From Armatimonadota bacterium (GTDB lineage Bacteria; Armatimonadota; SYMT01), in assembly GCA_046292385.1 (NCBI GenBank), contig JBKBRF010000003.1, positions 1 to 64,000 of the forward strand: a stretch of DNA of 64,000 nt. Reading direction: 5' to 3'. The notes under the pieces were generated by a model. That model had not been told where the DNA came from, did not search any database, and saw only the letters and a program-made list of their open reading frames with translations. This document shows positions 1,731 through 40,671 of the stretch, one piece after another. Position 1 is the stretch's first letter; every line of letters begins with the position of its first letter. Made by a program: the position numbers and the translations under genes.

Positions 1731-2726
1731 TCACCCTCCGCCGCAGCCGCCGCAGCCCCCGCCTCCGCAGCCGCCGCTCCCACAGCCGGAGCCGCAGCCG
1801 GACCCGCAGCTCGAGCCGGAGCCGCAGCCGCCGGCCGCCCCGGAGGCGTCGCCGCGGCGGAACATCCCGGGGTAGTAGTCGAAGGCGGTGTCCGTCAGCA
1901 CGCCGACGCCGAAGACGCCGACCAGCACCGGCAGCGCCCGGGTCGCCCCCATCTCGCCCGCCAGGGCGGCCCGCTGCTCCCGGAACGGCTGGTAGGCAAG
2001 CTGCAGCCGCTGGAGGTAGGCGTCGCCCAGGTGGGTCCGCCGCGGCTGCCGGGCGCAGAGCACCGTGAGCCCGACGAACGCGAGGAACCCGAGCAGGATC
2101 AGGAAGCCGACGTTGAAGTGACCGTTCGCCAGCGCGGCGACTAGCTTGTAGAGTCCCAGCCCGCCGATGATCCCCGCGCCGGCAAGCCAGGTCCGCACCG
2201 CCGTGTGCTGCGCTTCTTCCGGCCGCAGCAGCTTCTGTGCCTTCAAGCTCTGCTCGTACCGTGCCGCCAGCGGCTCCACCCGCTCCGGCAGCGCGCCTCG
2301 GAACACCTCCTCCGGTTTCCGTGGAGTGCGGAAGAACTCGAAGATGGTCCGCTCCAGCGGGGAGAGGTCGCGCGGCTCCGGGTGACTCCGGGCGTGGCCG
2401 AGCGCCTGGTCTCCCAGGCTGCGGGTCTTCACGCTAAGCCGGCTCGATTGCGCCTGCTCCTCCGCCAGTGGGACTTCCAGGTAGCCCCGCTGGAGCAGCG
2501 AGAAGACGACGATGCGGATCAGCTCGTTCACCCCTCCGCGCAGGAAGGCCACCTCGTACGGATCCGGGTTCTCCGGCACCTGCAGCGGCTTCGCGCCCTC
2601 GGTCGGGTCGGCGGCCTGCAGCCGGAAGTAGGCCCAGAGCAGCGTGCCGCCGCTCACCAGGGCATAGAGGAGCAGAAAGGCGGGTCCGCGCAGCTCCGCG
2701 AGCGGGTTGTGCAGCAGCCAGTCCAC
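1731..2726 (-). CDS. TIGR04222-type membrane protein with Cys/Gly-rich C-terminal tail
   Basis: GPAFLLLY, DPYEVAFLRGG, several TM segments, tail GGCGSGSSCGSGCGSGCGSGGCGGGGCGGCGGG; GGAGG RBS before GTG at 2726. Confidence 0.85.
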   Translation of the reverse strand: MDWLLHNPLAELRGPAFLLLYALVSGGTLLWAYFRLQAADPTEGAKPLQVPENPDPYEVAFLRGGVNELIRIVVFSLLQRGYLEVPLAEEQAQSSRLSVKTRSLGDQALGHARSHPEPRDLSPLERTIFEFFRTPRKPEEVFRGALPERVEPLAARYEQSLKAQKLLRPEEAQHTAVRTWLAGAGIIGGLGLYKLVAALANGHFNVGFLILLGFLAFVGLTVLCARQPRRTHLGDAYLQRLQLAYQPFREQRAALAGEMGATRALPVLVGVFGVGVLTDTAFDYYPGMFRRGDASGAAGGCGSGSSCGSGCGSGCGSGGCGGGGCGGCGGG

Positions 2727-2817
2727 GTCGGCCTCCAATTCCGCGGAGCCTCGACCGGGATCGTCCGACCGCCTCCCCGGCCTGCTCTGCTGAGTACCGG
2801 AACGGTCCCGCAGGGAG

Positions 2818-2843
2818 AACGTTTCGCCTCCGGCGCCGGTTCA
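2818..2843 (-). promoter_or_regulatory. Possible ECF-sigma promoter of the TIGR04222-DUF692 operon
   Basis: Minus strand TGAACC-N16-CGTT about 90 bp upstream of the start codon. Confidence 0.35.
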
Positions 2844-3018
2844 GCGTTCTTTAAGACTCCGCCACCCCCGGGCTTCCGCCCCCACTCCGGTGGGAGACGC
2901 CGGCTCAGGCGGAGTTGCGCCCGGTTCGCCGGTTGGAAACCCCACATCCGGAGCCTGAAGGTCATCAGCCTCGGGGTAGAGCACCAAACTCGCCGGTTCT
3001 CCACAGCCGGAAACCTGA

Positions 3019-3235
3019 GGCACCCGGAGGGTGCCACCTGTGACGGCCCCTGGGCGTCAGGGGCCGTAGCTCGAAGGCGGCCGAGCCAGCCCGTGAACCA
3101 AGCCATTGGAGCGATGCGGCGCCGCGACGCGGGATGAGCCCTCCGTGACGCACACCCGTAGGGGCCTGCTAGCGTAGGCGAAGCCGGAGCGTGAAAAGGC
3201 ACCGGAGGGCTCGCGTCGCGGGAGGGCTGGCTCGG
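3019..3235. repeat. Cluster of hairpins and nested inverted repeats (REP mosaic or structured RNA)
   Basis: GGCACCCGGAGGGTGCC; ACGGCCCCTG/CAGGGGCCGT; nested pairs 3081-3092/3224-3235, 3122-3131/3212-3221, 3136-3145/3203-3212. Confidence 0.6.
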
Positions 3236-3293
3236 ACGACAAGGGCTCGGGGTCGGCCCTCCGAGGTTCAACGCTGCCCTCAAGAGAACACCC

Positions 3294-4154
3294 TCAGATC
3301 CCGGTCCGAATCCCCTCCTCCGTCAGGTACCCCGTAATCAGCTCCGCCGGCGTCCGGTCGAACTGCACGTTCGCCACCTCCACCCCCGGTGGGGCTTCCG
3401 CCAGCACTTCCGACGGGGGCCCCGGCACCGTCGTGAAGCGCGCCGCCGGGTCGCGCTCGCCCACCCACCGGGAGCGCTCCGCCACCACGTAGACCTTGCG
3501 GCCGTGGGCGGCGCAGACCCGCGCGGCGACGGCGGTCCCCGCGGGGGCGACCACCGCTCCGTCCGGCAGCACCCGCTCCGCCTGGAGCAGCGCCAGGTCG
3601 CACTCCGGCGCGAACAGCTCCAGCTGCGCCTCCGTGATCAGCCGCACCGGCAGCGCCTGGTCCGCCAGCGCCGCGGCGATCGCCACTCCCCGGGAGCGGG
3701 GACGGCCCTCGCTCACCGTCACCGCTTCCAGCCGGTCGGCGAACTTCACGAGCAGCTTCAGCACCGTTTCCTCATGGCCGAGCACCAGGACCCGCGTCCC
3801 CGGCCGGAAGAGGCTCTCCGCCGCCTGCGCCAGCTCTCCGAAAGAAGAGCGGAGCACCGCCTCCGTCTCGGCGAGCGCCGCTTCCCGTCCCCGGCGCAGC
3901 GCCGCCTCCACCCGCTCCAGCGCCTGCGCCAGCGCCGTCGACTCCGACCGGGCCCGCCGCAGCCGCGCCGCGAAGGCGGAGAGCTGCGACCGGACCTGCT
4001 CGGCGTCCGCGTCCGGGGTCCAGGCCTGCTCCAGCGCGGCCCGGAACGTATCGACCGCCTGCCGCACGAGCTGCTCCGAGCCCGCCTCCCGGTTCGTCTC
4101 CAGCTCCAGCGCCTGCAGCAGCCACTCCCGCGGCAGCTTCAGCTCTCCCGCCAT
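3294..4154 (-). CDS. eIF-2B alpha/beta/delta-like (IF-2B family) protein
   Basis: SEGRPRSRG, ERVLPDG..GT, EVANVQFDRTPAELITGYLTEEG. Confidence 0.8.
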   Translation of the reverse strand: MAGELKLPREWLLQALELETNREAGSEQLVRQAVDTFRAALEQAWTPDADAEQVRSQLSAFAARLRRARSESTALAQALERVEAALRRGREAALAETEAVLRSSFGELAQAAESLFRPGTRVLVLGHEETVLKLLVKFADRLEAVTVSEGRPRSRGVAIAAALADQALPVRLITEAQLELFAPECDLALLQAERVLPDGAVVAPAGTAVAARVCAAHGRKVYVVAERSRWVGERDPAARFTTVPGPPSEVLAEAPPGVEVANVQFDRTPAELITGYLTEEGIRTGI

Positions 4155-10698: not shown

Positions 10699-12839
10699 GC
10701 CGCGAGCGCCCGATCGAGCTGCCCTGGGAAGAGGAGCGGTACGAGCTGGAGGCGGAGGCGGAGCGGTGGGCGCTGCTCTCCCGGCGAGACCTGCTGAAGA
10801 CGCTCGGCGGCGGCCTGCTGATCCTGCTCTGCGTCGGCGGCGCGGAGGCGGTGCAGGAGTCGGGCGGGCGGCGCGGCGGCGGGCGGCCGCAGGCGCCGCA
10901 GGAGCTGAGTGCCTGGCTGCACATCGGGGAGGACGGTACCGTCTCGGTTTTCACCGGGAAGACGGAAGTGGGGCAGAACATCCGCACCTCGCTCTCCCAG
11001 GCGGTGGCGGAGGAGCTGCGCGTGCCGCTCGCCTCGGTGCGGATGGTGATGGCGGACACCGCCCTCACGCCGTACGACATGGGCACCTTCGGCAGCCGCA
11101 CCACGCCGGCGATGGCGCCGCAGCTCCGCCGGGCCGCCGCGGCGGCGCGAGAGGAGCTGGTCCGGATCGCCGCGGAGACCTGGAAGACGGAGCCGGCGGC
11201 GCTCTCGGTGGCGGAGGGACGCGTGACGCACGCGCCGACCGGCCGCTCCGCCGGCTTCGGAGAGCTGACCCGCGGGCAGAAGCTGGTGCGCACCGTTTCG
11301 CAGGAAGGACCTCTCACCCCGGCCGCGGAGTGGAAGGTCGCCGGTACCTCCGTGCCGAAGGTCGACGCCCGCGCCATCGTGACCGGGCTGCACCGGTACA
11401 GCTCGGACCAGCGCCGCCCCGGAATGCAGGTGGGGAAGGTGCTGCGCGCGCCCGCGTACGGTGCGGAGCGGCTCTCGCTCGACCCCGCCGCGGCCGCGGC
11501 GATGCCCGGCGTGCAGGTGGTCCAGGACGGGCCGTTCGTCGGGGTCGTCGCGCCGGATGAGCTGACCGCCACCCGCGCCCTGGCGGCGCTGAAGGCGGCG
11601 TGGAAGCAGCCGGAAGGCGCGCCTTCTTCCGCGGAGCTGTGGGACCTGCTGAAGAAGGGCGGACCGCCGCAGCCGGACCCGCGGGTGGAGGAGGCGCTGA
11701 AGGGGGCGGACCACCGCCTCGCCGCCACCTATACGATCGCCTACATCGCGCACGTGCCGCTGGAGCCCCGCGCCGCCGTGGCGGAGTGGGAAGGGGACCG
11801 CGTGACGGTCTGGACCGGCACCCAGCGCCCGTTCGGGGTACGCGGCGAGCTGGCGTCCGCGCTTGGCATTCCGGAGGAGCGGATCCGCGTGATCGTGCCG
11901 GACACCGGCTCCGGTTATGGGGGCAAGCACACCGGAGAGGCGGCGGTCGAGGCGGCGCGGCTGGCGCGGGCGGCGGGGAAGCCGGTCCGCGTGGTCTGGA
12001 GCCGTCCGGAGGAGTTCACCTGGGCCTACCAGCGCCCGGCCGGCGTGATCGAGGTGCAGGGCGGCGTGAGCCGGGACGGCACCCTCCTCGCCTGGGACTT
12101 CCACAACTACAATTCCGGCGGCTCCGGCCTCCAGAGCCGCTACGAGGTGGCGGCGCGGCGCGAGCAGAGCCACCGGGCCGAGTCGCCGCTCCGGCAGGGC
12201 TCTTACCGCGGTCTCGCGGCGGCGGCGAACCACTTCGCGCGGGAGTGCCATCTGGACGACCTGGCGAAGCTGGCCGGCCTCGACCCGCTCGAATTCCGCC
12301 TGAAGAACCTGAAGGACGAGCGGATGCGCGCGGTGCTGCAGGCGGCCGCGGAGCGGTTCGGCTGGGACCGCCGCCGGAAGGGGGAGAACGTCGGCGCGGG
12401 GCTGGCGGTCGGCTTCGAGAAAGGCGGCTACGTCGCCACCTGCGCGGAGGTGGAGGTCGACCGTCCCCGCCGCGCGGTGCGGGTGACCCGCGCCGTCACC
12501 GCCTTCGAGTGCGGCGCGATCGTGAACCCGCGGCACCTGGAAAGCCAGGTGGAAGGCTGCGTGGTGATGGGCCTGGGTGGGGCGCTCTTCGAGCGGATCG
12601 ACTTCGGCGAGGGGCGGGTCCGCAACGCGAAGCTGGCCCAGTACCGCGTCCCCCGGTTCAGCGACCTCCCGCCGATGGAGATCGTGCTGCTCGACCGGAA
12701 AGACCTGCCCTCCGCGGGCGCCGGGGAGACGCCGATCGTCGGCATCGCCCCCGCCATCGGCAACGCGATCTTCGCCGCCTGCGGGCAGAGGATCCGCTCC
12801 CTGCCGATGCTCCCGGACGGGCTCCCCGACCCGGCGTAA
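10695..12839 (+). CDS. Molybdopterin-binding subunit of a xanthine dehydrogenase-family enzyme (IorB-like), Tat-like signal
   Basis: SRRDLLK, GKTEVGQ, GTFGSRTT, GSGYGGK, GAGETPI; ATGA overlap with the small subunit. Confidence 0.92.
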   Translation: MSRERPIELPWEEERYELEAEAERWALLSRRDLLKTLGGGLLILLCVGGAEAVQESGGRRGGGRPQAPQELSAWLHIGEDGTVSVFTGKTEVGQNIRTSLSQAVAEELRVPLASVRMVMADTALTPYDMGTFGSRTTPAMAPQLRRAAAAAREELVRIAAETWKTEPAALSVAEGRVTHAPTGRSAGFGELTRGQKLVRTVSQEGPLTPAAEWKVAGTSVPKVDARAIVTGLHRYSSDQRRPGMQVGKVLRAPAYGAERLSLDPAAAAAMPGVQVVQDGPFVGVVAPDELTATRALAALKAAWKQPEGAPSSAELWDLLKKGGPPQPDPRVEEALKGADHRLAATYTIAYIAHVPLEPRAAVAEWEGDRVTVWTGTQRPFGVRGELASALGIPEERIRVIVPDTGSGYGGKHTGEAAVEAARLARAAGKPVRVVWSRPEEFTWAYQRPAGVIEVQGGVSRDGTLLAWDFHNYNSGGSGLQSRYEVAARREQSHRAESPLRQGSYRGLAAAANHFARECHLDDLAKLAGLDPLEFRLKNLKDERMRAVLQAAAERFGWDRRRKGENVGAGLAVGFEKGGYVATCAEVEVDRPRRAVRVTRAVTAFECGAIVNPRHLESQVEGCVVMGLGGALFERIDFGEGRVRNAKLAQYRVPRFSDLPPMEIVLLDRKDLPSAGAGETPIVGIAPAIGNAIFAACGQRIRSLPMLPDGLPDPA

Positions 12840-34271: not shown

Positions 34272-35054
34272 GTGCGGATTTTTGTGGCAGGGCTGCTCGC
34301 GCTGGGGGTGGTCGGGACGGCGGCCGGGGTCACGAGCGCCAACGGGGTGACGGCCGAGGCCCGGCGGGAGAGCCGGCGCGACGACGCGATCTTCCAGACC
34401 TCCACGATCGGGGCGCTCACGGCCGCGGTGCTGGACGGCCACATGACGGTCGCCAAGCTCCAGAAGCACGGAAACTTCGGCGTGGGGACGTTCCACGCGC
34501 TGGACGGGGAGATGGTGGTGGTAGACGGCAGCGCCTACCAGGTGCGGGTAGACGGCAGCGTCCGCCGCGTGCCGGGCTCGACCACCACCCCATTCGCCAT
34601 GGTGAAGTGGTTCCGGCCCGAGCGGAGCGTGAGGATCCAGGGAACGGAGAGCCTGGACGCGCTGGGGCAGCTTCTCGACGGCCTGATCGCCTCCCCGAAC
34701 GTCTCCACGGCGATCCGGATCGAAGGGCGCTTCAACCGCATCCTCACCCGCAGCGTGCCGGCGCAGTCGAAGCCGTATGCCGGCCTCGCCGAAGCGGTGC
34801 GGCAGCAGCGGACCTTCGAGCTCCTCGGCGTAGAAGGGGTGATGGTCGGCTTCCGCACGCCGGAGTACCTGGCGCCGCTCAACAACGGCGGCTACCACTT
34901 CCACTTCCTCACAGCCGACCGCAAGGCCGGCGGCCACGTGCTGGCCGTCGACATCTCCCAGGCCCGGGCGCAGCTCGACAACTCCCTCGGCTTCCGTCTC
35001 GCCCTGCCCGGGTCGCAAGAGTTCGCGGAGGCGGTGCTCCCCGGTCAGAACTGA
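34272..35054 (+). CDS. Alpha-acetolactate decarboxylase with signal-like N-terminus
   Basis: FQTSTIGAL, HGNFGVGTF..LDGEM, RSVP.Q.KPY, GYHFHF, GGHVL. Confidence 0.9.
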   Translation: MRIFVAGLLALGVVGTAAGVTSANGVTAEARRESRRDDAIFQTSTIGALTAAVLDGHMTVAKLQKHGNFGVGTFHALDGEMVVVDGSAYQVRVDGSVRRVPGSTTTPFAMVKWFRPERSVRIQGTESLDALGQLLDGLIASPNVSTAIRIEGRFNRILTRSVPAQSKPYAGLAEAVRQQRTFELLGVEGVMVGFRTPEYLAPLNNGGYHFHFLTADRKAGGHVLAVDISQARAQLDNSLGFRLALPGSQEFAEAVLPGQN

Positions 35055-35074
35055 GTGGGAGCAAGGGGGAGCTA

Positions 35075-35330
35075 GAGGGATGAATCCGAACCCTCCGTGA
35101 ACGGGGAGTCTTGCTCCTGCTCCTGCTCCTGCTCGCTGGCGACCTCCGGGGCTCCGGCATGTCCTGGTGAGGTCCGAACGGTTCCGCCGCCCCTCCAGGG
35201 CGGGTGATTGGGACGGCGGAGGTCCGGGGGCTGCGCTGCGCTGACCCCCGGCTATCCTCTCCCGCCCCTCCGGGGCGCCAGCCCCGCCGCGCCCTGTCTC
35301 TCCGTCCCTCTGTCTCTCCGTCTCAGCGGG
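35075..35330. repeat. REP mosaic, inverted relative of 13525-14005
   Basis: ATGAATCCGAACCCTCCGTG, CTGCGCTGCGCTGACCCCCGGCTATCCTCT. Confidence 0.85.
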
Positions 35331-35392
35331 GGCTCGCCCACTCCAACCCCGTTAACCGGTCGGAGATCGTCGAATGGCTGGCGCGCTGACGG

Positions 35393-35773
35393 TCAGGAGT
35401 CGGAGGGGGCGGCTCCGCAAAGGAGGTCGGCGAACAGCTCTGCCTGGCGCTCGTCTTCGTCGCGTAAGAAGTCGGGATAGCCGTAGACTACCCCGTGGCG
35501 CTCGTTGTCGTAGATGAGGGCGTGATACAGCTCGTGCGCCAGCACTCGGGCGTCTACGCCCAGCCGCAGCAGGATCAACGGCCAGGGCCAGGGCGCATAG
35601 TAGCCGGGTCGCTGGAGGCGCGGGTGGACGAACACAGTGGTGCCGCGGGCGTGACAGACCTCCAGCAGCTCTCCGTAGGTGGCGCGCGGAGAGAGACCGT
35701 ACTCCGCCCGGATCCGCTCCGCCAGGTAAAAGGCCGGCTCCAGCGGGCCGCGATGATGCGTCAGGGTGTTCAT
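35393..35773 (-). CDS. ImmA/IrrE-family zinc metallopeptidase
   Basis: LAHELYH (HExxH) and EDERQAELFADLL (E-x-x-A-x-x-F-A). Confidence 0.8.
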   Translation of the reverse strand: MNTLTHHRGPLEPAFYLAERIRAEYGLSPRATYGELLEVCHARGTTVFVHPRLQRPGYYAPWPWPLILLRLGVDARVLAHELYHALIYDNERHGVVYGYPDFLRDEDERQAELFADLLCGAAPSDS

Positions 35774-35819
35774 ACTCCCATCACTCCGACCGGCACGTTC
35801 CCCGGTATACCGCCCGGAT

Positions 35820-35840
35820 TAGAACATATGTTTGATTATA
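35820..35840 (-). promoter_or_regulatory. LexA-type box next to a TATAAT -10 element, upstream of the peptidase gene
   Basis: TAGAAC-ATAT-GTTTG at 35820-35834; minus-strand TATAAT at 35835-35840. Confidence 0.6.
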
Positions 35841-35885
35841 CTGGCACCTCGCCAGCCGGGGGAGTGCGACGGGTGTCAATGCGGG

Positions 35886-36314
35886 TCAGCCGAGCCCGCG
35901 CTCACGCCGCTTGGCGGCGATGAGCGCCCGCATCGCCTCTTTGAGCGCCCGCAGGTCCTCTTCTCCCAGGTCCTGCGTGCCCTGGAACCCGCGGACGTCG
36001 ACCTGCTCCAGGTCCGGCTCGTAGCTCAGCGCCTCCCGGCGGCGCTCTACCGCCCGCAGCAGGCTCTCCGCCGCCCCGGCGGGGTCCTCCGGCTCGATCC
36101 GGGGGTAGCCCCACGCCTCGCGCCAGTCGTTCACGTCGAGCCCCAGCCCCCGGGCAAACCGCTCCACCGTCTCCACGCCGACGTCACGCCCGTGCCAGAG
36201 CCGCGCCATCGCCTCCCGGCTGAGGTCGAGGCGCAGGTGGGCGGCGTGCTGGGTGAGGCCGCGGGCCTCCAGCTCGGCGCGGACCCGATCGGCGCGTTCT
36301 TGTTGCGGTGCCAT
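35886..36314 (-). CDS. XRE-like HTH repressor (ImmR/CI-like)
   Basis: EARGLTQHAAHLRLDLSREAMARLWHG..ETVERFARGLGL; lies upstream of the ImmA-like gene. Confidence 0.65.
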   Translation of the reverse strand: MAPQQERADRVRAELEARGLTQHAAHLRLDLSREAMARLWHGRDVGVETVERFARGLGLDVNDWREAWGYPRIEPEDPAGAAESLLRAVERRREALSYEPDLEQVDVRGFQGTQDLGEEDLRALKEAMRALIAAKRRERGLG

Positions 36315-36370
36315 CAACAACAGTGTAGCCGACGGCTGCCGCGCCGCGTCTCCCGCGGAAGAGAAAAGTT

Positions 36371-36414
36371 GTTGCTGTCTCGGCAGCAACGTGTTACTAT
36401 AGAACAGTAGTTTG
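36371..36414 (+). promoter_or_regulatory. Divergent promoter with palindromic operator and LexA-type box
   Basis: TTGCTG-N17-TACTAT (36372-36400); palindrome GTTGCTG-N6-CAGCAAC (36371-36390); TAGAAC-AGTA-GTTTG (36400-36414). Confidence 0.65.
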
Positions 36415-36459
36415 CTAGTTCTCCAGCCGGGGCGGCGCTCCGGGGAGAGGAGGTTGGAC

Positions 36460-36504
36460 ATGAAGCAAGCGGAATGGAGCACGAGTAGCTGGAGGTGGAG
36501 ATGA
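36460..36504 (+). CDS. Putative 14-aa uORF MKQAEWSTSSWRWR
   Basis: AGGAGG RBS; stop overlaps the next start (ATGATG). Confidence 0.35.
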   Translation: MKQAEWSTSSWRWR

Positions 36505-36881
36505 TGTCCGGCCGGACCCCGCTGCCCGAGGGGCACGAAGAGCTGCGGATGGAGCGCCGGTACGGCGCGCGGATCTACAGGGATTACCTGGGCCATCACC
36601 GGCGGACGGAGCCGATCGGCTTCCTCCGCTCGCGCTCGGATGGGCGCCATCACCCGTTCGACAAGCGGGAGCTGCTGCCGGCGGGGCTCTGGGACCTGCA
36701 CGAGGCGGTGCAGGCCGCCGCGCTCGCGGCGGGTCTTCCGTACGCGCAGGTGCTGGCGGCGGCGCGACGGCTGCTGCCTGGCTTCCTGCAATCTTCCTGC
36801 GGCCAGTCGCGCCCGGACCTTCCCACGGAGCCCGTCGATGCACGCGGAATCCAGCCGGAGCCGGGCCGTCTCCCCCGGTAG
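36501..36881 (+). CDS. Hypothetical protein
   Basis: GGAGG RBS; first full gene after the divergent promoter. Confidence 0.6.
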   Translation: MMSGRTPLPEGHEELRMERRYGARIYRDYLGHHRRTEPIGFLRSRSDGRHHPFDKRELLPAGLWDLHEAVQAAALAAGLPYAQVLAAARRLLPGFLQSSCGQSRPDLPTEPVDARGIQPEPGRLPR

Positions 36882-37251
36882 CTCGGACCTTTCCCCGGAG
36901 GAGGCGCCCGCCCTCCCGGCGTCACCGGACGAGCGCGACGGCGGCTCCTTCCCCACGGGTCCCGCGTGGGAGATCACGGAGGAGCAGGCATGGCGCTGGT
37001 TCATCCACCGGTTCCGGGACCTCTGCCGGAACCCGGCGTTCCTGGCCCGGGCGTCGCTGGACGAGCACGAGCTGCTGCTGCTGGTCTATGACCTGGGCTG
37101 TTACGAGCAGCAGTGCCTGCGCTGGCTGCGGGCGCCGGAGGTCTACCCGCGGCCCCCGTCGCTCTCGGAGTACCTCTCACCCGGGCGAGAGGAGTGGGGC
37201 GTGGTGGCGCGGCTCGTCCGGGAGCTGCGGGAGGCGGAAGACGCGGAGTGA
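36838..37251 (+). CDS. Hypothetical protein
   Basis: Ordered C-terminal part (WEITEEQAWRWFIHRFRDLC..) with host-like codon usage; start uncertain. Confidence 0.55.
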   Translation: MHAESSRSRAVSPGSSDLSPEEAPALPASPDERDGGSFPTGPAWEITEEQAWRWFIHRFRDLCRNPAFLARASLDEHELLLLVYDLGCYEQQCLRWLRAPEVYPRPPSLSEYLSPGREEWGVVARLVRELREAEDAE

Positions 37252-37305
37252 GATCCGACGGGCCGGGGCGCGTCCGCGTCCCGGCCCTGGACACAGGAGG
37301 TGCCG

Positions 37306-37863
37306 ATGAGAGAGCGACGCCGGATCCTGGTGCCGAGGAGCGACTGGGAGCGGCTGGTGCGCTGCGCGGGGGAGGAGCGGGATGAGCCGCGGCTGGCGTT
37401 CCGCGACCGGGCGGTGGTGGCGACCTTCCTCTTCTCCGGCCTGCGCTGCGGGGAGCTGACCGGGCTGGACCTGGACGACGTGGAGTGGACCGAGACTCCC
37501 GCCGGGCTGCGCTGCCGGCTGCGCCTGCGGAAGCCCGGCTCCGGCCCCCGGCGCCGGGCCGCGCTGGCGGCGCTCGGGGCGGAGCTGCTGGAGGAGTACC
37601 TCGACCTGCGCCCGGAGTGGGAGTGCCCCGCGCTCTTCCTCTCCCGCAAAGGCGGACGGCTCGATCGCAGCGCCGTCTGGCGGGTGGTCCACCGCGCCGG
37701 AGCCCGCGCCGGCTACCCGGAGCTGCGGCCGGGCGACCTGCGCCGCGCCTTTGCCGCGGAGGCGGTACGCCAGGCCGCGCGCAAGGGGAACAGCCTGGAA
37801 GACGTGGCGCGCCAGCTCGGACACGAGCTGCCGGAGAGCACCCGGCGGTGCGTCCGCCGCTGA
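37306..37863 (+). CDS. Tyrosine recombinase catalytic-domain-only protein, apparently inactive
   Basis: RDRAVV..SGLRCGEL..LDLDDV, LFLS, PGDLRRAFA, QLGH..STRRC; no N-terminal core-binding domain. Confidence 0.8.
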   Translation: MRERRRILVPRSDWERLVRCAGEERDEPRLAFRDRAVVATFLFSGLRCGELTGLDLDDVEWTETPAGLRCRLRLRKPGSGPRRRAALAALGAELLEEYLDLRPEWECPALFLSRKGGRLDRSAVWRVVHRAGARAGYPELRPGDLRRAFAAEAVRQAARKGNSLEDVARQLGHELPESTRRCVRR

Positions 37864-37921
37864 CCGGATCCCCCGCGCTCCGGAGAGGTTGAAACCGGCT
37901 ATACTGGGGGCGGATTGTTCG

Positions 37922-38012
37922 CAAGTTGTCAGGTTCCAGGTTGCAGGTTGGGAACCCCTCGACCGTCGGCGGCTTCTAACTTGCTAACCTGCCAACCTGC
38001 AGCTTGCCAACC
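37922..38012. repeat. Inverted short-period repeats (CAGGTTG / CAACCTG)
   Basis: Same motif at about 12845-12870 and 43875-43910. Confidence 0.65.
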
Positions 38013-38026
38013 TCGAGCGAGGCTCT

Positions 38027-39145
38027 ATGCACGGTGATTTCGACTTTCCCACGCGCGTGGTCTTCGGTCCCGGGCGGGTGCGCGAGCTGCCGGAGCTGGT
38101 GCGGGAGCTGGGGCGCCAGCCGCTGGTGGTGACCGACCGCGGGGTGATGGGACACCGGGCGGCGCAGCCGGTGCTCGACGCCCTCTCCGCGGGGGACGTT
38201 GACTTTCGGGTCTTCCACGACGTCCAGTCGACCGCCGACGCGGCGACGATCGAAACCGGGGTCCGCCGCTTCATGGAAGGGTGCGACGTACTGGTAGCGG
38301 TCGGCGGCGGCAGCGCGCTGGACGCCGCGAAGGCGATCCGGCTCGGGACCACGCATCCCGGCCCGCTGGAGAGCTACGATTGCTTCTGCGAGCTCCCCGC
38401 GCCGATCCGACCGGAGCTGCCGCCCCTCGTGGCGATCCCCACCACCGCCGGCACCGGCAGCGAGGTGAGCGGCGAGGCGGTGGTAAGCGTGAGCGGCCGC
38501 CGGCACACGCTCTCCAGCCCGCACCTCCAGCCGACCCTGGCCCTGTGCGATCCGGAGCTGACGGTCGACCTCTCCGGCCCGCTCACCGCGGAGGGCGGCG
38601 CCTACGCGCTCACCCACTGCGTGGAGGGGTATCTCGCCCCCGTGTTCCACCCGCTCTGCGACGCGATCGCGCTCGACGGCGCGGCGCGCGCCAGGCGGTG
38701 GCTGCCGGAGGCGGTGCGCAGTCCGCTGAACGTGGAGGCCCGCTCGGAGCTGATGCTCGCGGCGCTCATGGGCGGCATCGCTTCCCGCAAGGAACGCGGC
38801 CTGACCTACGCCTTCTCTGCCGCGCTCGCGGCCGTGGCGGGCACGCACCCCGGCGCCGCCTACGCGGTGATGCTGCCGCACGTCCTGCGCTCCCTGGCCC
38901 CCGCCGTGCCCGAGCGGCTCTCCGTCCTCGCCGCGGCCCTCGGCGCCGGCGCGGGATCACTGGCCGACACCCTGGCCGAGCACTTCGCTAGCCTCAGGCT
39001 GCCCGTCCGCCTGCGCGAGGAGAACGTAACCCACGCCCTCCTCGGCCCGCTGGCAGAGCAAGCGCTGGTGGAAGCGTCCCGCCACCGCCTTCCCCGCGCC
39101 GTCTCCCGCGAGGAGATCGCCGCGCTGCTGGAGTCCGCGTTCTGA
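38027..39145 (+). CDS. Iron-containing alcohol dehydrogenase family protein (divergent metal site)
   Basis: FPTRVVFGPG, VAVGGGSALDAAK, IPTTAGTGSEV, DPELT. Confidence 0.88.
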   Translation: MHGDFDFPTRVVFGPGRVRELPELVRELGRQPLVVTDRGVMGHRAAQPVLDALSAGDVDFRVFHDVQSTADAATIETGVRRFMEGCDVLVAVGGGSALDAAKAIRLGTTHPGPLESYDCFCELPAPIRPELPPLVAIPTTAGTGSEVSGEAVVSVSGRRHTLSSPHLQPTLALCDPELTVDLSGPLTAEGGAYALTHCVEGYLAPVFHPLCDAIALDGAARARRWLPEAVRSPLNVEARSELMLAALMGGIASRKERGLTYAFSAALAAVAGTHPGAAYAVMLPHVLRSLAPAVPERLSVLAAALGAGAGSLADTLAEHFASLRLPVRLREENVTHALLGPLAEQALVEASRHRLPRAVSREEIAALLESAF

Positions 39146-39254
39146 AGGGCAGGTGCGCAGGTGCGCAGGTGCAGCGAGTGCAAGAATAGATGCAGGCGCG
39201 CTTCGGAGGAGGCCCACGCGGACGACAGTTTCGGAAAGCGACGAGGAAGGCTGC

Positions 39255-39490
39255 TTCTCACGGGGCCTCAGCCCCGGCCCCTCTCCTGAGAGGAGAGGGG
39301 CCGGGGGTGTGATGCCGCTGCTCCCCCTTCCACTTCAGGAAACGCTTCTCTTCCGAACGGGGGCGGGCTGGGGGTGAGGAGGCGCCGGAGTGCTAACCCG
39401 CCGTGCTAGATCTCGACGGCTTTTCCAAAAGCAGTAAGAGCCCAAGTTCGGCCTTCATCCCTCATCCTTCATCCCTCATCCCTCAGAAGC
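39255..39490. repeat. REP-like composite plus TTCATCC heptamers
   Basis: Related to 6669-6899, 16070-16280 and 53480-53625. Confidence 0.7.
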
Positions 39491-39528
39491 CCCCATCCCC
39501 CTATCTCCTTTTCTTACACTTCCAGTAG

Positions 39529-40671
39529 ATGTCCACCGGCGTTACGTTCGGGAAATACCGGATCCTCGGCGAGCTGGGGCGGGGCGCGATGGGCGTGGTG
39601 TACGAGGCGTTCGACCCCGAGCGGGAGACCGAGGTCGCCCTCAAGGTGATCGGGGACCAGCGTGGCCGCAGCCCCGCGTCTCGGGAGCGGCAGGTGGAGC
39701 GGTTCTGCCGGGAGGCCCGGGCGCTGGCGCGGCTGCGGCACCCGTATATCGTCCGGTTCTACGACCAGGGCGAGCTGAACGGCCGCCACTACTTCTCGAT
39801 GGAGCGGGTGCGGGGCACCACGCTGCGGGAGCGGCTGCAGTTCCAGGGCGCGCTCTCCCTGCCGGAGCTGACCCGGCTGCTCGGAGAGCTGGCGGACGCG
39901 CTCGACCACCTGCACGCGCGGGAAGTGGTCCACCGGGATATCAAGCCGGAGAACATCATGCTCCTGCCGGATGGCACCAGCAAGCTGATGGACTTCGGGA
40001 TCGCCCGCATCCTGACCGAGGAGGACACCGCCGCCACCACCGGTTTCCAGGGGTCGCCCGCCTACATGTCGCCGGAGCAGGCGGCCGGGAGGCCGGTCGA
40101 CGGCCGCAGCGACATCTTCTCCCTCTCCGTGGTGCTGTACGAGGCGGCGACCGGCCGCCGGGCGTTCCAGGGAGAGAGCATTCCGGAGATCGTCCGGAAG
40201 GTGACCGAGGAGTATCCGCCGCCGCCGGTGGGGCTGCCGCGCTACTTCGAGCTGGCGCTCCTGCGGGCGATGGCGAAGGATCCCACCCAGCGGTACGCGC
40301 GGGCGAGCGAGATGGCGGAGGACGTGCGGGCGCAGCGGCTGCCGGCAATCTTCAACGCGCGGCCCGCGCCGAAGACTGCCCCGGCCCGGCCGCCGTACCT
40401 GGGCGCGATCCCGGACTTCCTGCTGGAGGTGTCGGAGGTCATCCCGCCGCTCCCCACGGTCCCCGCGGCGCTGCGGCGCGGCAGCACGCCTCCGATCGGA
40501 GACCAGGCGGCATTCCGCACCGATACGGTGCGGGTCCCCTGCCGCTATCATCCGTCGTACGCGGGGGTCGATATCTGCGGCACCTGCGGCGCACCGGTCT
40601 GCCACACCTGCCTGGTAGAGGTGGTGGGGCGGGGGGTGCACTGCCGGGTCTGCTCCTACGGGAAAGAGTGA
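39529..40671 (+). CDS. Hanks-type Ser/Thr protein kinase with C-terminal B-box-like zinc finger
   Basis: LGRGAMG, VALK, HRDIKPEN, DFGIA, YMSPEQ; CRYHP..CGTC..CHTC..CRVC. Confidence 0.92.
   Translation: MSTGVTFGKYRILGELGRGAMGVVYEAFDPERETEVALKVIGDQRGRSPASRERQVERFCREARALARLRHPYIVRFYDQGELNGRHYFSMERVRGTTLRERLQFQGALSLPELTRLLGELADALDHLHAREVVHRDIKPENIMLLPDGTSKLMDFGIARILTEEDTAATTGFQGSPAYMSPEQAAGRPVDGRSDIFSLSVVLYEAATGRRAFQGESIPEIVRKVTEEYPPPPVGLPRYFELALLRAMAKDPTQRYARASEMAEDVRAQRLPAIFNARPAPKTAPARPPYLGAIPDFLLEVSEVIPPLPTVPAALRRGSTPPIGDQAAFRTDTVRVPCRYHPSYAGVDICGTCGAPVCHTCLVEVVGRGVHCRVCSYGKE

Follow-up and report, generated by a model that had tools for sequence, protein, structure and literature searches.

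The stretch of DNA dealt with here (the window) comprises bases 1-64000 of contig C3 in a draft genome of an Armatimonadota bacterium (G000; 7.04 Mb, 69% G+C, 91 contigs), and it contains at positions 35393-37863 a cassette of five genes: on the minus strand a small metallopeptidase gene (pep) and an XRE-type repressor gene, and on the plus strand, divergent from these, two small genes without a known family (unkA and unkB) and a tyrosine-recombinase-like gene (rec). The cassette is probably an immobilised control/immunity-plus-recombination module of a temperate element, that is, a prophage or a satellite, with an intact two-key DNA-damage switch. In the wiring that we infer for binding, cleavage and output, LexA would repress the peptidase gene, the peptidase would inactivate the repressor and the repressor would hold the operon silent. 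Directly seen are the genes, the motifs and their ranks, the fold of the peptidase, the paralogs and a design common to two other elements of the genome. An initial annotation made from the letters of the window had proposed a DNA-damage switch of metallopeptidase and helix-turn-helix (HTH) repressor, and this is supported by a LexA-type box at both promoters and by the IrrE/CapP fold of pep. The genes and control sites of the cassette are as follows.

pep: 35393-35773, minus strand, 126 amino acids (aa), third-position G+C 0.83, HELYH motif
LexA-type box 1 (AGAACATATGTTTG): 35821-35834, 29.3 bits, 48-61 nt before the pep start
TTGACACCC box: 35871-35879, minus strand, contains the ACACCC common to three peptidase upstream regions
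XRE gene: 35886-36314, minus strand, 142 aa, third-position G+C 0.91
Operator-like site O2: 36302-36321, GTTG-N12-CAAC, overlaps the repressor start codon
Operator-like site O1: 36371-36390, GTTGCTG-N6-CAGCAAC, perfect 7-bp inverted repeat
Plus-strand promoter: -10 TACTAT at 36395-36400, plus strand, read by eye, -35 TTGCTG matching 3 of 6 positions
Minus-strand promoter: TGGAGA-18-TATAGT, 36425..36396, minus strand, faces the XRE gene
LexA-type box 2 (AGAACAGTAGTTTG): 36401-36414, 23.7 bits, rank 12 in the genome
Putative upstream open reading frame (uORF): 36460-36504, plus strand, 14 codons of which 3 are Trp, GGAGG 8 nt upstream, ATGA overlap with the unkA start
unkA: 36501-36881, plus strand, 126 aa, third-position G+C 0.88
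unkB: 36838-37251, plus strand, 137 aa, third-position G+C 0.91
rec: 37306-37863, plus strand, 185 aa, third-position G+C 0.93

The five-gene layout given in the initial annotation (HExxH peptidase, XRE gene, two unknown open reading frames and a recombinase-like gene) was confirmed, since all five are present, intact and coding-like with a third-codon-position G+C of 0.83-0.93, and a third-position G+C scan of 30-42 kb recovered exactly the genes of its list. The two LexA-type boxes and the two 20-bp operator-like sites starting at 36302 and 36371 had been overlooked in it.

Both boxes have the form AGAAC-N4-GTTTG (motif GAAC-N4-GTTT) and they occupy both regulatory spacers of the cassette. 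Box 1 lies one base downstream of a perfect minus-strand TATAAT (35840..35835) on the pep strand, while box 2 falls within the 18-nt spacer of the promoter on the minus strand and directly follows the plus-strand -10. Both promoter regions therefore carry what appears to be a host LexA box with predicted LexA binding, and with box 1 at the pep promoter and box 2 between the divergent promoters LexA could shut all three transcription units. As GAAC-N4-GTT[CT], the motif occurs twice before the lexA gene itself, which encodes LexA_DNA_bind and Peptidase_S24 domains, and it is also found before radA (as a perfect palindrome), an impB/mucB-type Y-family polymerase gene and a radical-SAM gene. In addition, a 20.1-bit site (C20:72276, given as contig:position) and a TAGAAT precede a 124-aa ligT-like gene heading the recA operon; recA, second in this operon, thus seems to be under SOS control. 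The same two-box layout is present upstream of lexA in a relative (genome G004), the LexA proteins being 81% identical. A position weight matrix was built from five SOS-gene sites, namely, those of lexA (two), radA, the radical-SAM gene and the polymerase gene, with the cassette excluded. When the 7,041,224 positions of the genome were scored, 4 reached 29 bits, 12 reached 23.5, 49 reached 15.5 and 105 reached 13.5, and the cassette boxes ranked 4th (box 1) and 12th (box 2); box 1 is the top non-seed site of the genome and the score of box 2 is tied with that of one of the lexA gene's own boxes. A full-text literature search gave no description of an SOS box in Armatimonadetes.

The same arrangement is repeated in two other elements of the genome. 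A prophage on contig 12 has genes for an integrase, an Xis-like HTH protein, RecT, ParB, DUF5131, an E2/ThiF pair, a phage metallopeptidase, a large terminase and a portal protein. Its peptidase (255 aa, HELGH, Pfam M78 E 0.023) is encoded between the integrase and repressor genes, and a CAAAC-N4-GTTTG site of 13.7 bits lies about 90 nt before the start. An element on contig 45 (C45:1-14000) encodes a large serine recombinase, a 278-aa HEMAH protein (Pfam M78 E 0.012), a HipA-like kinase, the gene of which lies between the peptidase and repressor genes, an XRE repressor, RecT and Prim-Pol/D5, and a 15.5-bit LexA-type site is located about 30 nt before the start of the HEMAH protein gene. The three peptidase upstream regions can be aligned, each having an ACACCC box, then (G)TATA(AT/CG) and directly after it CAAAC-N4-RTTY; in the cassette the TTGACACCC box is 33 nt from TATAAT, too distant for a -35 element. 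Hence, a LexA-type box stands before an M78-like gene in all three elements examined in this genome, and the chance of a site per 150-bp window is about 0.002 and 0.001 at the contig-12 and contig-45 thresholds, respectively. As a separate observation, the early genes of the contig-12 prophage include a Prok-E2_D plus ThiF/E1-like pair and a gene for a 244-aa pentapeptide-repeat protein (2158-3707 and 6296-7030 of C12:75001-94000).

These sites bear on a different explanation, in which the cassette has an ordinary ImmR/ImmA-like or toxin-antitoxin-like pair of XRE protein and Zn-peptidase without LexA input, the boxes being promoter look-alikes or sites of the XRE protein. There are precedents for such a pair in ICEBs1 and the Listeria monocin, where expression of the pair is under the control of its own repressor and activation of the protease is post-translational (PMC6872733). 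Moreover, pep may be co-transcribed with the repressor gene, a gap of 112 nt separating the two and no -35 having been found for pep, and the pattern count within the window is not significant when taken alone. However, the motif is also found before lexA (twice), radA, the Y-family polymerase gene and the recA operon, and the cassette sites rank 4th and 12th genome-wide; the box also recurs before the peptidase gene in three of three elements and before the unkA-unkB-rec trio in G004, whose lexA carries the same boxes, and the XRE protein's own sites are accounted for by a separate palindrome, GTTG-N12-CAAC. A pair without LexA input is thus quite unlikely.

Several further high-scoring sites were noted in the genome in passing. 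A palindromic CGAAC-N4-GTTCG box (22.2 bits, C28:73158) stands directly before a Cas3 gene with HD and helicase domains, which hints at SOS control of a CRISPR nuclease. A 26.6-bit box (C11:111770) precedes the gene for a 120-aa protein without a Pfam family, a candidate member of the SOS regulon, and a 21.6-bit site (C5:193225) lies between a divergent small gene and a 102-aa gene followed by the gene for a 314-aa XerC/D-like recombinase. Furthermore, a contig-end repeat is present in five copies (C1:83, C64:159, C66:83, C38:66151 and C16:130837) which are 98-99% identical over 125-128 bp, each with a 27.5-bit LexA-type box about 40 bp from its inner edge; one possibility is a mobile element in several copies whose end is under SOS control.

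The second key is the XRE protein, which matches HTH_31 (E 4.3e-4, 21 bits against a cut-off of 27) and HTH_3 (E 0.014, 15.8 bits against 23) below threshold in both cases, and phrog_8 "transcriptional regulator" of PHROGs at E 3.7e-4. With the contig-12 prophage repressor, a paralog whose HTH domain scores 29 bits, it shares 55% identity over 94 aa. Pairs of GTTG-N12-CAAC palindromes mark both loci: there are 38 such sites in 7.04 Mb, and two of them lie within 90 bp at the divergent promoter of the window and two within 40 bp at that of the contig-12 repressor. Of the two back-to-back promoters, which occupy 36395-36425, the plus-strand one has its -35 and the minus-strand one its start region within O1; O1 was also listed as a hairpin with a T-rich tail. 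The only promoter called as sigma-70-like between 35000 and 38100 is that on the minus strand (mean for shuffled sequences, 0.0). The perfect O1-type operator has no second copy in the genome, even when 1 mismatch is allowed, so that no other target of the repressor is visible. A divergent promoter, repeated palindromic operators and a relative in a prophage immunity region are therefore all found, as in CI/ImmR-like systems, and the XRE protein is by these features a putative repressor of phage origin.

The peptidase has the residues H80-E81-xx-H84 and E108, that is, HExxH plus a downstream Glu as the third ligand, which is the motif of M78 peptidases. It scores 12.9 bits (E 0.097) with Pfam PF06114 (M78), below the curated cut-off of 22, and matches nothing in PHROGs or PADLOC. 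A HMMER search over 1.84 billion representatives gave 69 pep-like proteins at E<=1e-3 including pep itself (33 at E<=1e-10), and 47 of the 69 have at most 135 aa, so there is no room for a sensor domain in them. When 60 relatives were aligned, leaving out nine short or partial ones (P0033, P0043, P0046, P0051, P0055-P0058 and P0064), E81 was invariant and H80, H84, E108 and F114 were at least 90% conserved. The best match of the profile of this alignment among PDB sequences was CapP (7t5t, E 0.0069), an IrrE ortholog being weaker (E 1.3), and the catalytic residues of pep align to AHELGH...E of CapP. Fifteen of the 60 relatives touch Pfam M78 at E<=0.1 (best E 7.9e-4). By sequence, the pep group is a divergent sister group of M78 and not a curated member. 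The AlphaFold (AF2) model built on the alignment has a predicted local distance difference test score (pLDDT) of 90.3 and a predicted template modelling score (pTM) of 0.84, and the Foldseek matches to it ranked 1-11 in the PDB are all M78 proteins, with modest E values of 1.1e-3 to 2.1e-2, probability 1.00 and template modelling (TM) scores by query of 0.48-0.61. These eleven include IrrE (3dti/3dte), PprI (8sln/8slm), the Mycobacterium tuberculosis XRE-M78 regulator (6cyy) and its relatives, and CapP (7t5t); the matched chains have 240-330 residues with extra domains for which pep is too short. As modelled, pep is a bare, sensor-less M78 catalytic domain of the ImmA/IrrE/CapP fold. No close relative of pep was found in 401 genomes of the phylum and no locus of the pep family in metagenome, genome and viral collections scanned with the family alignment; tblastn against 50,697 phage records gave no match for pep or unkB, and in a word-based protein search each of these two matched only itself.

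The following sequence of events is proposed. At rest, LexA would sit on the box just downstream of the pep -10 and a second LexA on the other box, where the promoters of the repressor gene and of the uORF-unkA-unkB-rec operon stand back to back, while the XRE repressor would occupy the two 20-bp GTTG-N12-CAAC operators at the divergent region. DNA damage would lead to the RecA-stimulated self-cleavage of LexA and thereby open the pep promoter. Because pep has no sensor domain, its activity would be set by its amount, and it would cut the XRE repressor as in the ImmA/ImmR and IrrE/DdrO systems. Once LexA and the repressor are both gone, the plus-strand operon would be transcribed. The ancestral element would have used its short recombinase, together with the two small partner proteins, for a site-specific DNA step, but the rec of the window, with its nucleophile gone, would do DNA binding at most.

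Rec matches PF00589 (Phage_integrase) at E 2.5e-15 with 57.1 bits against a cut-off of 27.1, and it has the tyrosine-recombinase fold as a catalytic domain only. In the catalytic set R..HxxR..H..Y, both Arg and the second His are kept, whereas the first His is replaced with Gly and the nucleophile Tyr with Cys. An alignment was made with the homologs P0071, in G004 and on contig 12; P0071, the only close relative of rec (59% identical), retains H, R, H and Y, all three aligned short homologs retain the catalytic Tyr and two of them (contig 12 and P0071) the first His. Rec is also alone in having Arg after the second Arg, and the protein is full-length and not truncated. Thus, rec is a protein with the fold of a recombinase but, as predicted from these residues, not an active recombinase, and the inactive recombinase domain described in the initial annotation is borne out by the loss of the nucleophile and of the first catalytic His.

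UnkA and unkB match no known family in Pfam and PHROGs. A weak homolog of unkA (BLASTP E 1e-4) is found at the same place in G004:C38, and small unkA-like open reading frames precede unkB in the other three loci described below. UnkB is helical, with a conserved core from about 36955 and a motif PPxLxEYLxxxRExWG; its AF2 model, a structure prediction suggested in the initial annotation, is also helical with a pLDDT of 61. The idea that unkB is the detached core-binding domain of a split recombinase was unsupported: a wide VIA-align search gave generic helical matches only (best Z 5.8), hhalign against a XerC-like profile gave a probability of 0.2%, and the ESM Atlas offered no usable feature match and structure matches of TM <0.5 only. 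The predicted complex of rec and unkB residues 40-137 had a score of 0.00, which gives no verdict.

The trio of unkA, unkB and rec was found at five loci: the window, the contig-12 prophage, G004:C451, G004:C38 and L077, the last being a 2.3-kb metagenome contig. The contig-12 prophage has adjacent paralogs of unkB and rec (45% and 35% identical, respectively) after its early genes and before the terminase gene, and this recombinase is canonical (HMLRH...LGH...EIYAHV). The G004:C451 trio follows a ThiF-like gene, as does that of the contig-12 prophage. The G004:C38 trio is preceded by a 26.6-bit LexA-type box and adjoins a dicarboxylate symporter gene, the contig ending 350 bp further, and in L077 the trio comes right after a phosphatase-like, apparently cellular gene, with the unkB stop overlapping the rec start. 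A perfect 42-nt palindrome (about 11240-11285) was also noted in the leader of the G004:C38 trio operon, after the LexA-type box and before the unkA-like gene starts. UnkB is rare: it occurs in 2 of 61 relatives and in 3 of 401 phylum genomes, and the match in one of these three is weak and interrupted by two stops. Among 185,579 species genomes scanned by pattern, the record of G004 alone contains it, and none was found in viral contigs or phage records.

The surroundings of the cassette are cellular. The genes within about 7 kb are all of this kind, the flanking ones encoding alpha-acetolactate decarboxylase (Pfam E 3.9e-75) and iron alcohol dehydrogenase (Fe-ADH, E 3.9e-42) and the other neighbours LemA, an AP-endonuclease-2-type TIM barrel, NYN, HD and RNHCP proteins, a protein kinase and a radical-SAM protein. 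The G+C content of the cassette is 0.68-0.73 against 0.69 for the genome. There is no tRNA gene in the 64-kb window. No convincing att-like direct repeat was found, nor any direct or inverted repeat flanking the cassette; the repeats seen were of low identity, as is usual in high-G+C DNA. The tRNA, repeat, G+C and neighbour scans agree with what had been noticed at the outset, namely, no tRNA or att site, host-like composition and no phage genes nearby. The acetolactate decarboxylase gene was not found in five relatives of the family and, of the neighbours, relatives share the Fe-ADH only (plus the kinase in G005), so synteny around the cassette is not conserved. The two internal regulatory spacers of the cassette are unique in the genome by blastn. 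The leader RNA folds no better than shuffled sequences (z -0.71) and has no Rfam match at E<=0.1, and no counterpart of the uORF was seen in the G004 locus. The two flanks are as follows.

Left flank: 35055-35392, 338-bp spacer made of dispersed genome-wide intergenic repeats
Right flank: 37864-38026, 163-bp spacer with imperfect inverted repeats of a dispersed repeat

Repeats had been noted on both sides of the cassette, and they are indeed present; however, they are of the dispersed intergenic kind and are not the ends of an element. The left flank has more than 100 blastn matches within the genome, on dozens of contigs, and the right flank about 20 short matches on other contigs. In all four metagenome runs, contig depth goes up many-fold at 34966-35513. 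In the same runs, the dispersed-repeat spacers 35055-35392 and 39076-39623 have a summed contig depth of 10-25 times that of the neighbouring genes.

Because there is no integrase, att site or structural gene and the recombinase is dead, the cassette is considered to be immobilised. The opposite possibility is that it is a still-mobile miniature element or satellite, a 2.5-kb unit moved in trans, for example by the intact short recombinase of contig 12, with the dead rec as a DNA-binding accessory. An intact recombinase and unkB paralogs do occur in the same genome, rec is the last gene before cellular DNA in both the window and G004:C38, and the L077 trio starts right after a cellular gene. 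Two joints, 35144->37937 and 35144->37977, would even skip almost exactly the cassette, but they were rejected as excision events, as no more than 21-24 letters match on one side, their starting point is a dispersed repeat that joins many other places, and they are seen in run X1 only. With no flanking direct or inverted repeat, and with the rec|ADH junction kept in two other studies and the left-flank junction in one, continued mobility is very improbable.

Near-identical pieces of the cassette are present in contigs of runs from three other studies (X2, X3 and X5). The junctions are kept, that of the left flank with pep in one (X3 record 20) and that of rec with the alcohol dehydrogenase gene in two (X2 record 14 and X3 record 23), and the contigs also cover unkA, unkB and rec in part. 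The variant figures rest on 40 of 243 differences. Seventeen of the 40 are in cassette open reading frames, and 14 of these 17 are at third codon positions. The changed codons are synonymous versus replacement 8 to 3 in unkB (in one diverged X2 contig), 1 to 1 in rec and 0 to 1 in pep, compared with 10 to 2 in the neighbouring kinase gene. Since 8 of its 11 changes are synonymous, unkB evolves like a working gene, while the codon data for the other cassette genes are too thin for the same inference.

Such retention raises the question of whether the cassette has become a host module whose SOS-induced output serves the cell, the nucleophile-less rec with unkA and unkB acting as a sequence-specific DNA-binding regulator or an exclusion factor against related phages, or the resident repressor giving immunity. 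The five open reading frames and the regulatory sites are all intact, near-identical pieces with the same junctions recur in the three other studies, the codon changes of unkB are close to those of the kinase, the third-position G+C is host-like, and SroF sets a precedent for a recombinase fold without the tyrosine acting as a repressor (bioRxiv 10.1101/2025.11.27.690993). These points have to be set against the strains compared, which are nearly identical and tell little about long-term retention, against poor conservation (2 of 61 relatives and 3 of 401 phylum genomes have unkB, and none of the 401 has a close relative of pep), and against the catalytic Tyr kept in the three aligned short homologs, so that its loss is private to the copy in the window. 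In addition, the perfect operator is unique to the cassette with no other target visible, and none of the five cassette proteins matches PADLOC at E<=0.01, neither the cyclic-oligonucleotide-based anti-phage signalling system (CBASS) nor any other family. We consider a host module rather unlikely. The "domesticated stress or defence cassette" of the initial annotation is not established, in view of the PADLOC result, the unique operator, the paralogs in a prophage and the few relatives with unkB. Homologs confined to full prophages or integrative and conjugative elements (ICEs), together with neutral decay of this copy, were not what was found either: the trio is also located beside cellular genes, the open reading frames are intact, the junctions are kept and the unkB changes are mostly synonymous. 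A more specific version, which is unlikely, would be a domesticated SOS two-key switch with a recombinase-fold output that, like SroF, has traded catalysis for sequence-specific DNA binding and with unkA and unkB reprograms or blocks the contig-12 and contig-45 prophages or incoming relatives; the LexA-gated mini-M78 peptidase would then be a new damage route, used by a family of about 115-aa peptidases (68 clusters).

Several observations weigh against an immobilised module of a temperate element with a LexA-controlled switch. The cassette is unlike a decaying relic, since its open reading frames are intact, its junctions are kept in three other studies and most of the unkB changes are synonymous. 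Around it in the window there is no integrase gene, att site or tRNA and no replication or structural gene, and with no mobility or structural genes left a phage origin has to be argued from the paralogs and the common design. By BLAST, pep itself resembles neither the contig-12 nor the contig-45 peptidase, genomic context was recovered for none of the 68 pep relatives, and the trios of G004:C38 and L077 have cellular neighbours, neither of these short contigs showing a phage gene. With respect to the boxes, two were found by pattern within the window where 0.87 are expected, a count reached in 20 of 100 shuffles; the weight matrix is A+T-rich in a 69% G+C genome, so promoter-like stretches score somewhat high, and the pep promoter has no -35 at normal spacing.

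If an immobilised module with this switch is confirmed, it would explain how a sensor-less protease can act as a damage sensor, give a name to a family of about 115-residue proteins left below threshold by Pfam, and provide a first SOS box and a partial SOS regulon for a little-studied lineage. The cassette, 2.5 kb long with five genes, is also a compact test bed, and it offers a rare recombinase module of three genes in which the two small partners have no known fold.

Two textbook routes lead from damage to the induction of elements with non-self-cutting repressors: a LexA-repressed antirepressor that binds the repressor, and a constitutive ImmA/IrrE-type protease that is activated post-translationally. 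The present genome appears to combine both, with a bare M78 domain encoded by a LexA-held gene in three separate elements. The closest parallel in layout is that of ImmR/ImmA of ICEBs1 and the COG2856 pairs including MpaR, in which an HExxH gene of the M78 fold likewise lies directly downstream of an XRE gene on the same strand. As in ImmR/ImmA, the pair is divergent from the operon that it would control, induction would be linked to DNA damage and the repressor probably autoregulates through operators at the divergent promoter. A typical ImmA is about 50-60 residues longer than pep and is activated post-translationally. Unlike ImmA, pep would be only the catalytic core and its gene has a promoter-proximal LexA-type box of its own, so that the signal would enter via transcription; full-text literature searches gave no paper describing a LexA box before an ImmA-type peptidase gene. 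ImmR/ImmA and MpaR of Listeria are described as repressor-protease duos in which the repressor autoregulates the pair (PMC6872733).

In its logic the cassette resembles the LexA-controlled antirepressors, where host LexA represses a small phage gene the product of which inactivates a non-self-cleaving phage repressor. Examples are Tum of coliphage 186, GfoA/GfhA of the Gifsy phages and Ant of SPC32H. Known antirepressors bind their repressor, unlike the LexA-gated product of the cassette, which is a predicted metallopeptidase and would cut it. LexA-linked prophage switches include Tum, CTXphi and GIL01, as listed in a published account (PMC12637031), and SPbeta-like phages have a LexA-controlled antirepressor, Sar, which mimics DNA (bioRxiv 10.1101/2025.11.27.690993).

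By fold, pep is nearest to IrrE(PprI)/DdrO and CapP/CapH, with 3dti, 3dte, 8sln, 8slm and 7t5t as the best structural matches and CapP as the best sequence-profile match, and the proposed principle, a protease cutting an XRE repressor after DNA damage, is the same. Unlike pep with its 126 aa, however, the IrrE and CapP chains have 240-291 residues (IrrE/PprI 243-248) and further domains. The IrrE/DdrO pathway is described as distinct from LexA and SOS-independent (PMC6868357), whereas the cassette seems to be LexA-dependent.

FimB/FimE-type invertases are short tyrosine recombinases of about 190-225 aa without a core-binding domain. Rec is similar to them in being catalytic-domain-only, and the tyrosine is still present in its contig-12, G004 and P0071 relatives, but in contrast to the invertases there is no switch flanked by inverted repeats nearby, unkA and unkB always precede, and the copy in the window is predicted to be catalytically dead. 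SroF, a YopR-type protein, is the master repressor of SPbeta-like phages and has the integrase fold without the catalytic tyrosine (bioRxiv 10.1101/2025.11.27.690993). Like SroF, rec has the tyrosine-recombinase fold minus the catalytic tyrosine and lies in what would be the control region of a temperate element tied to SOS. There is no sequence relation between the two, and SroF has 319 aa with core-binding and catalytic domains and is itself the repressor, whereas rec is a 185-aa catalytic domain encoded in the operon that would be repressed. Therefore, compared with these known kinds, the cassette appears to combine an ImmA/ImmR-type proteolytic switch with the logic of a LexA-gated antirepressor, and its ancestry would be that of a phage.

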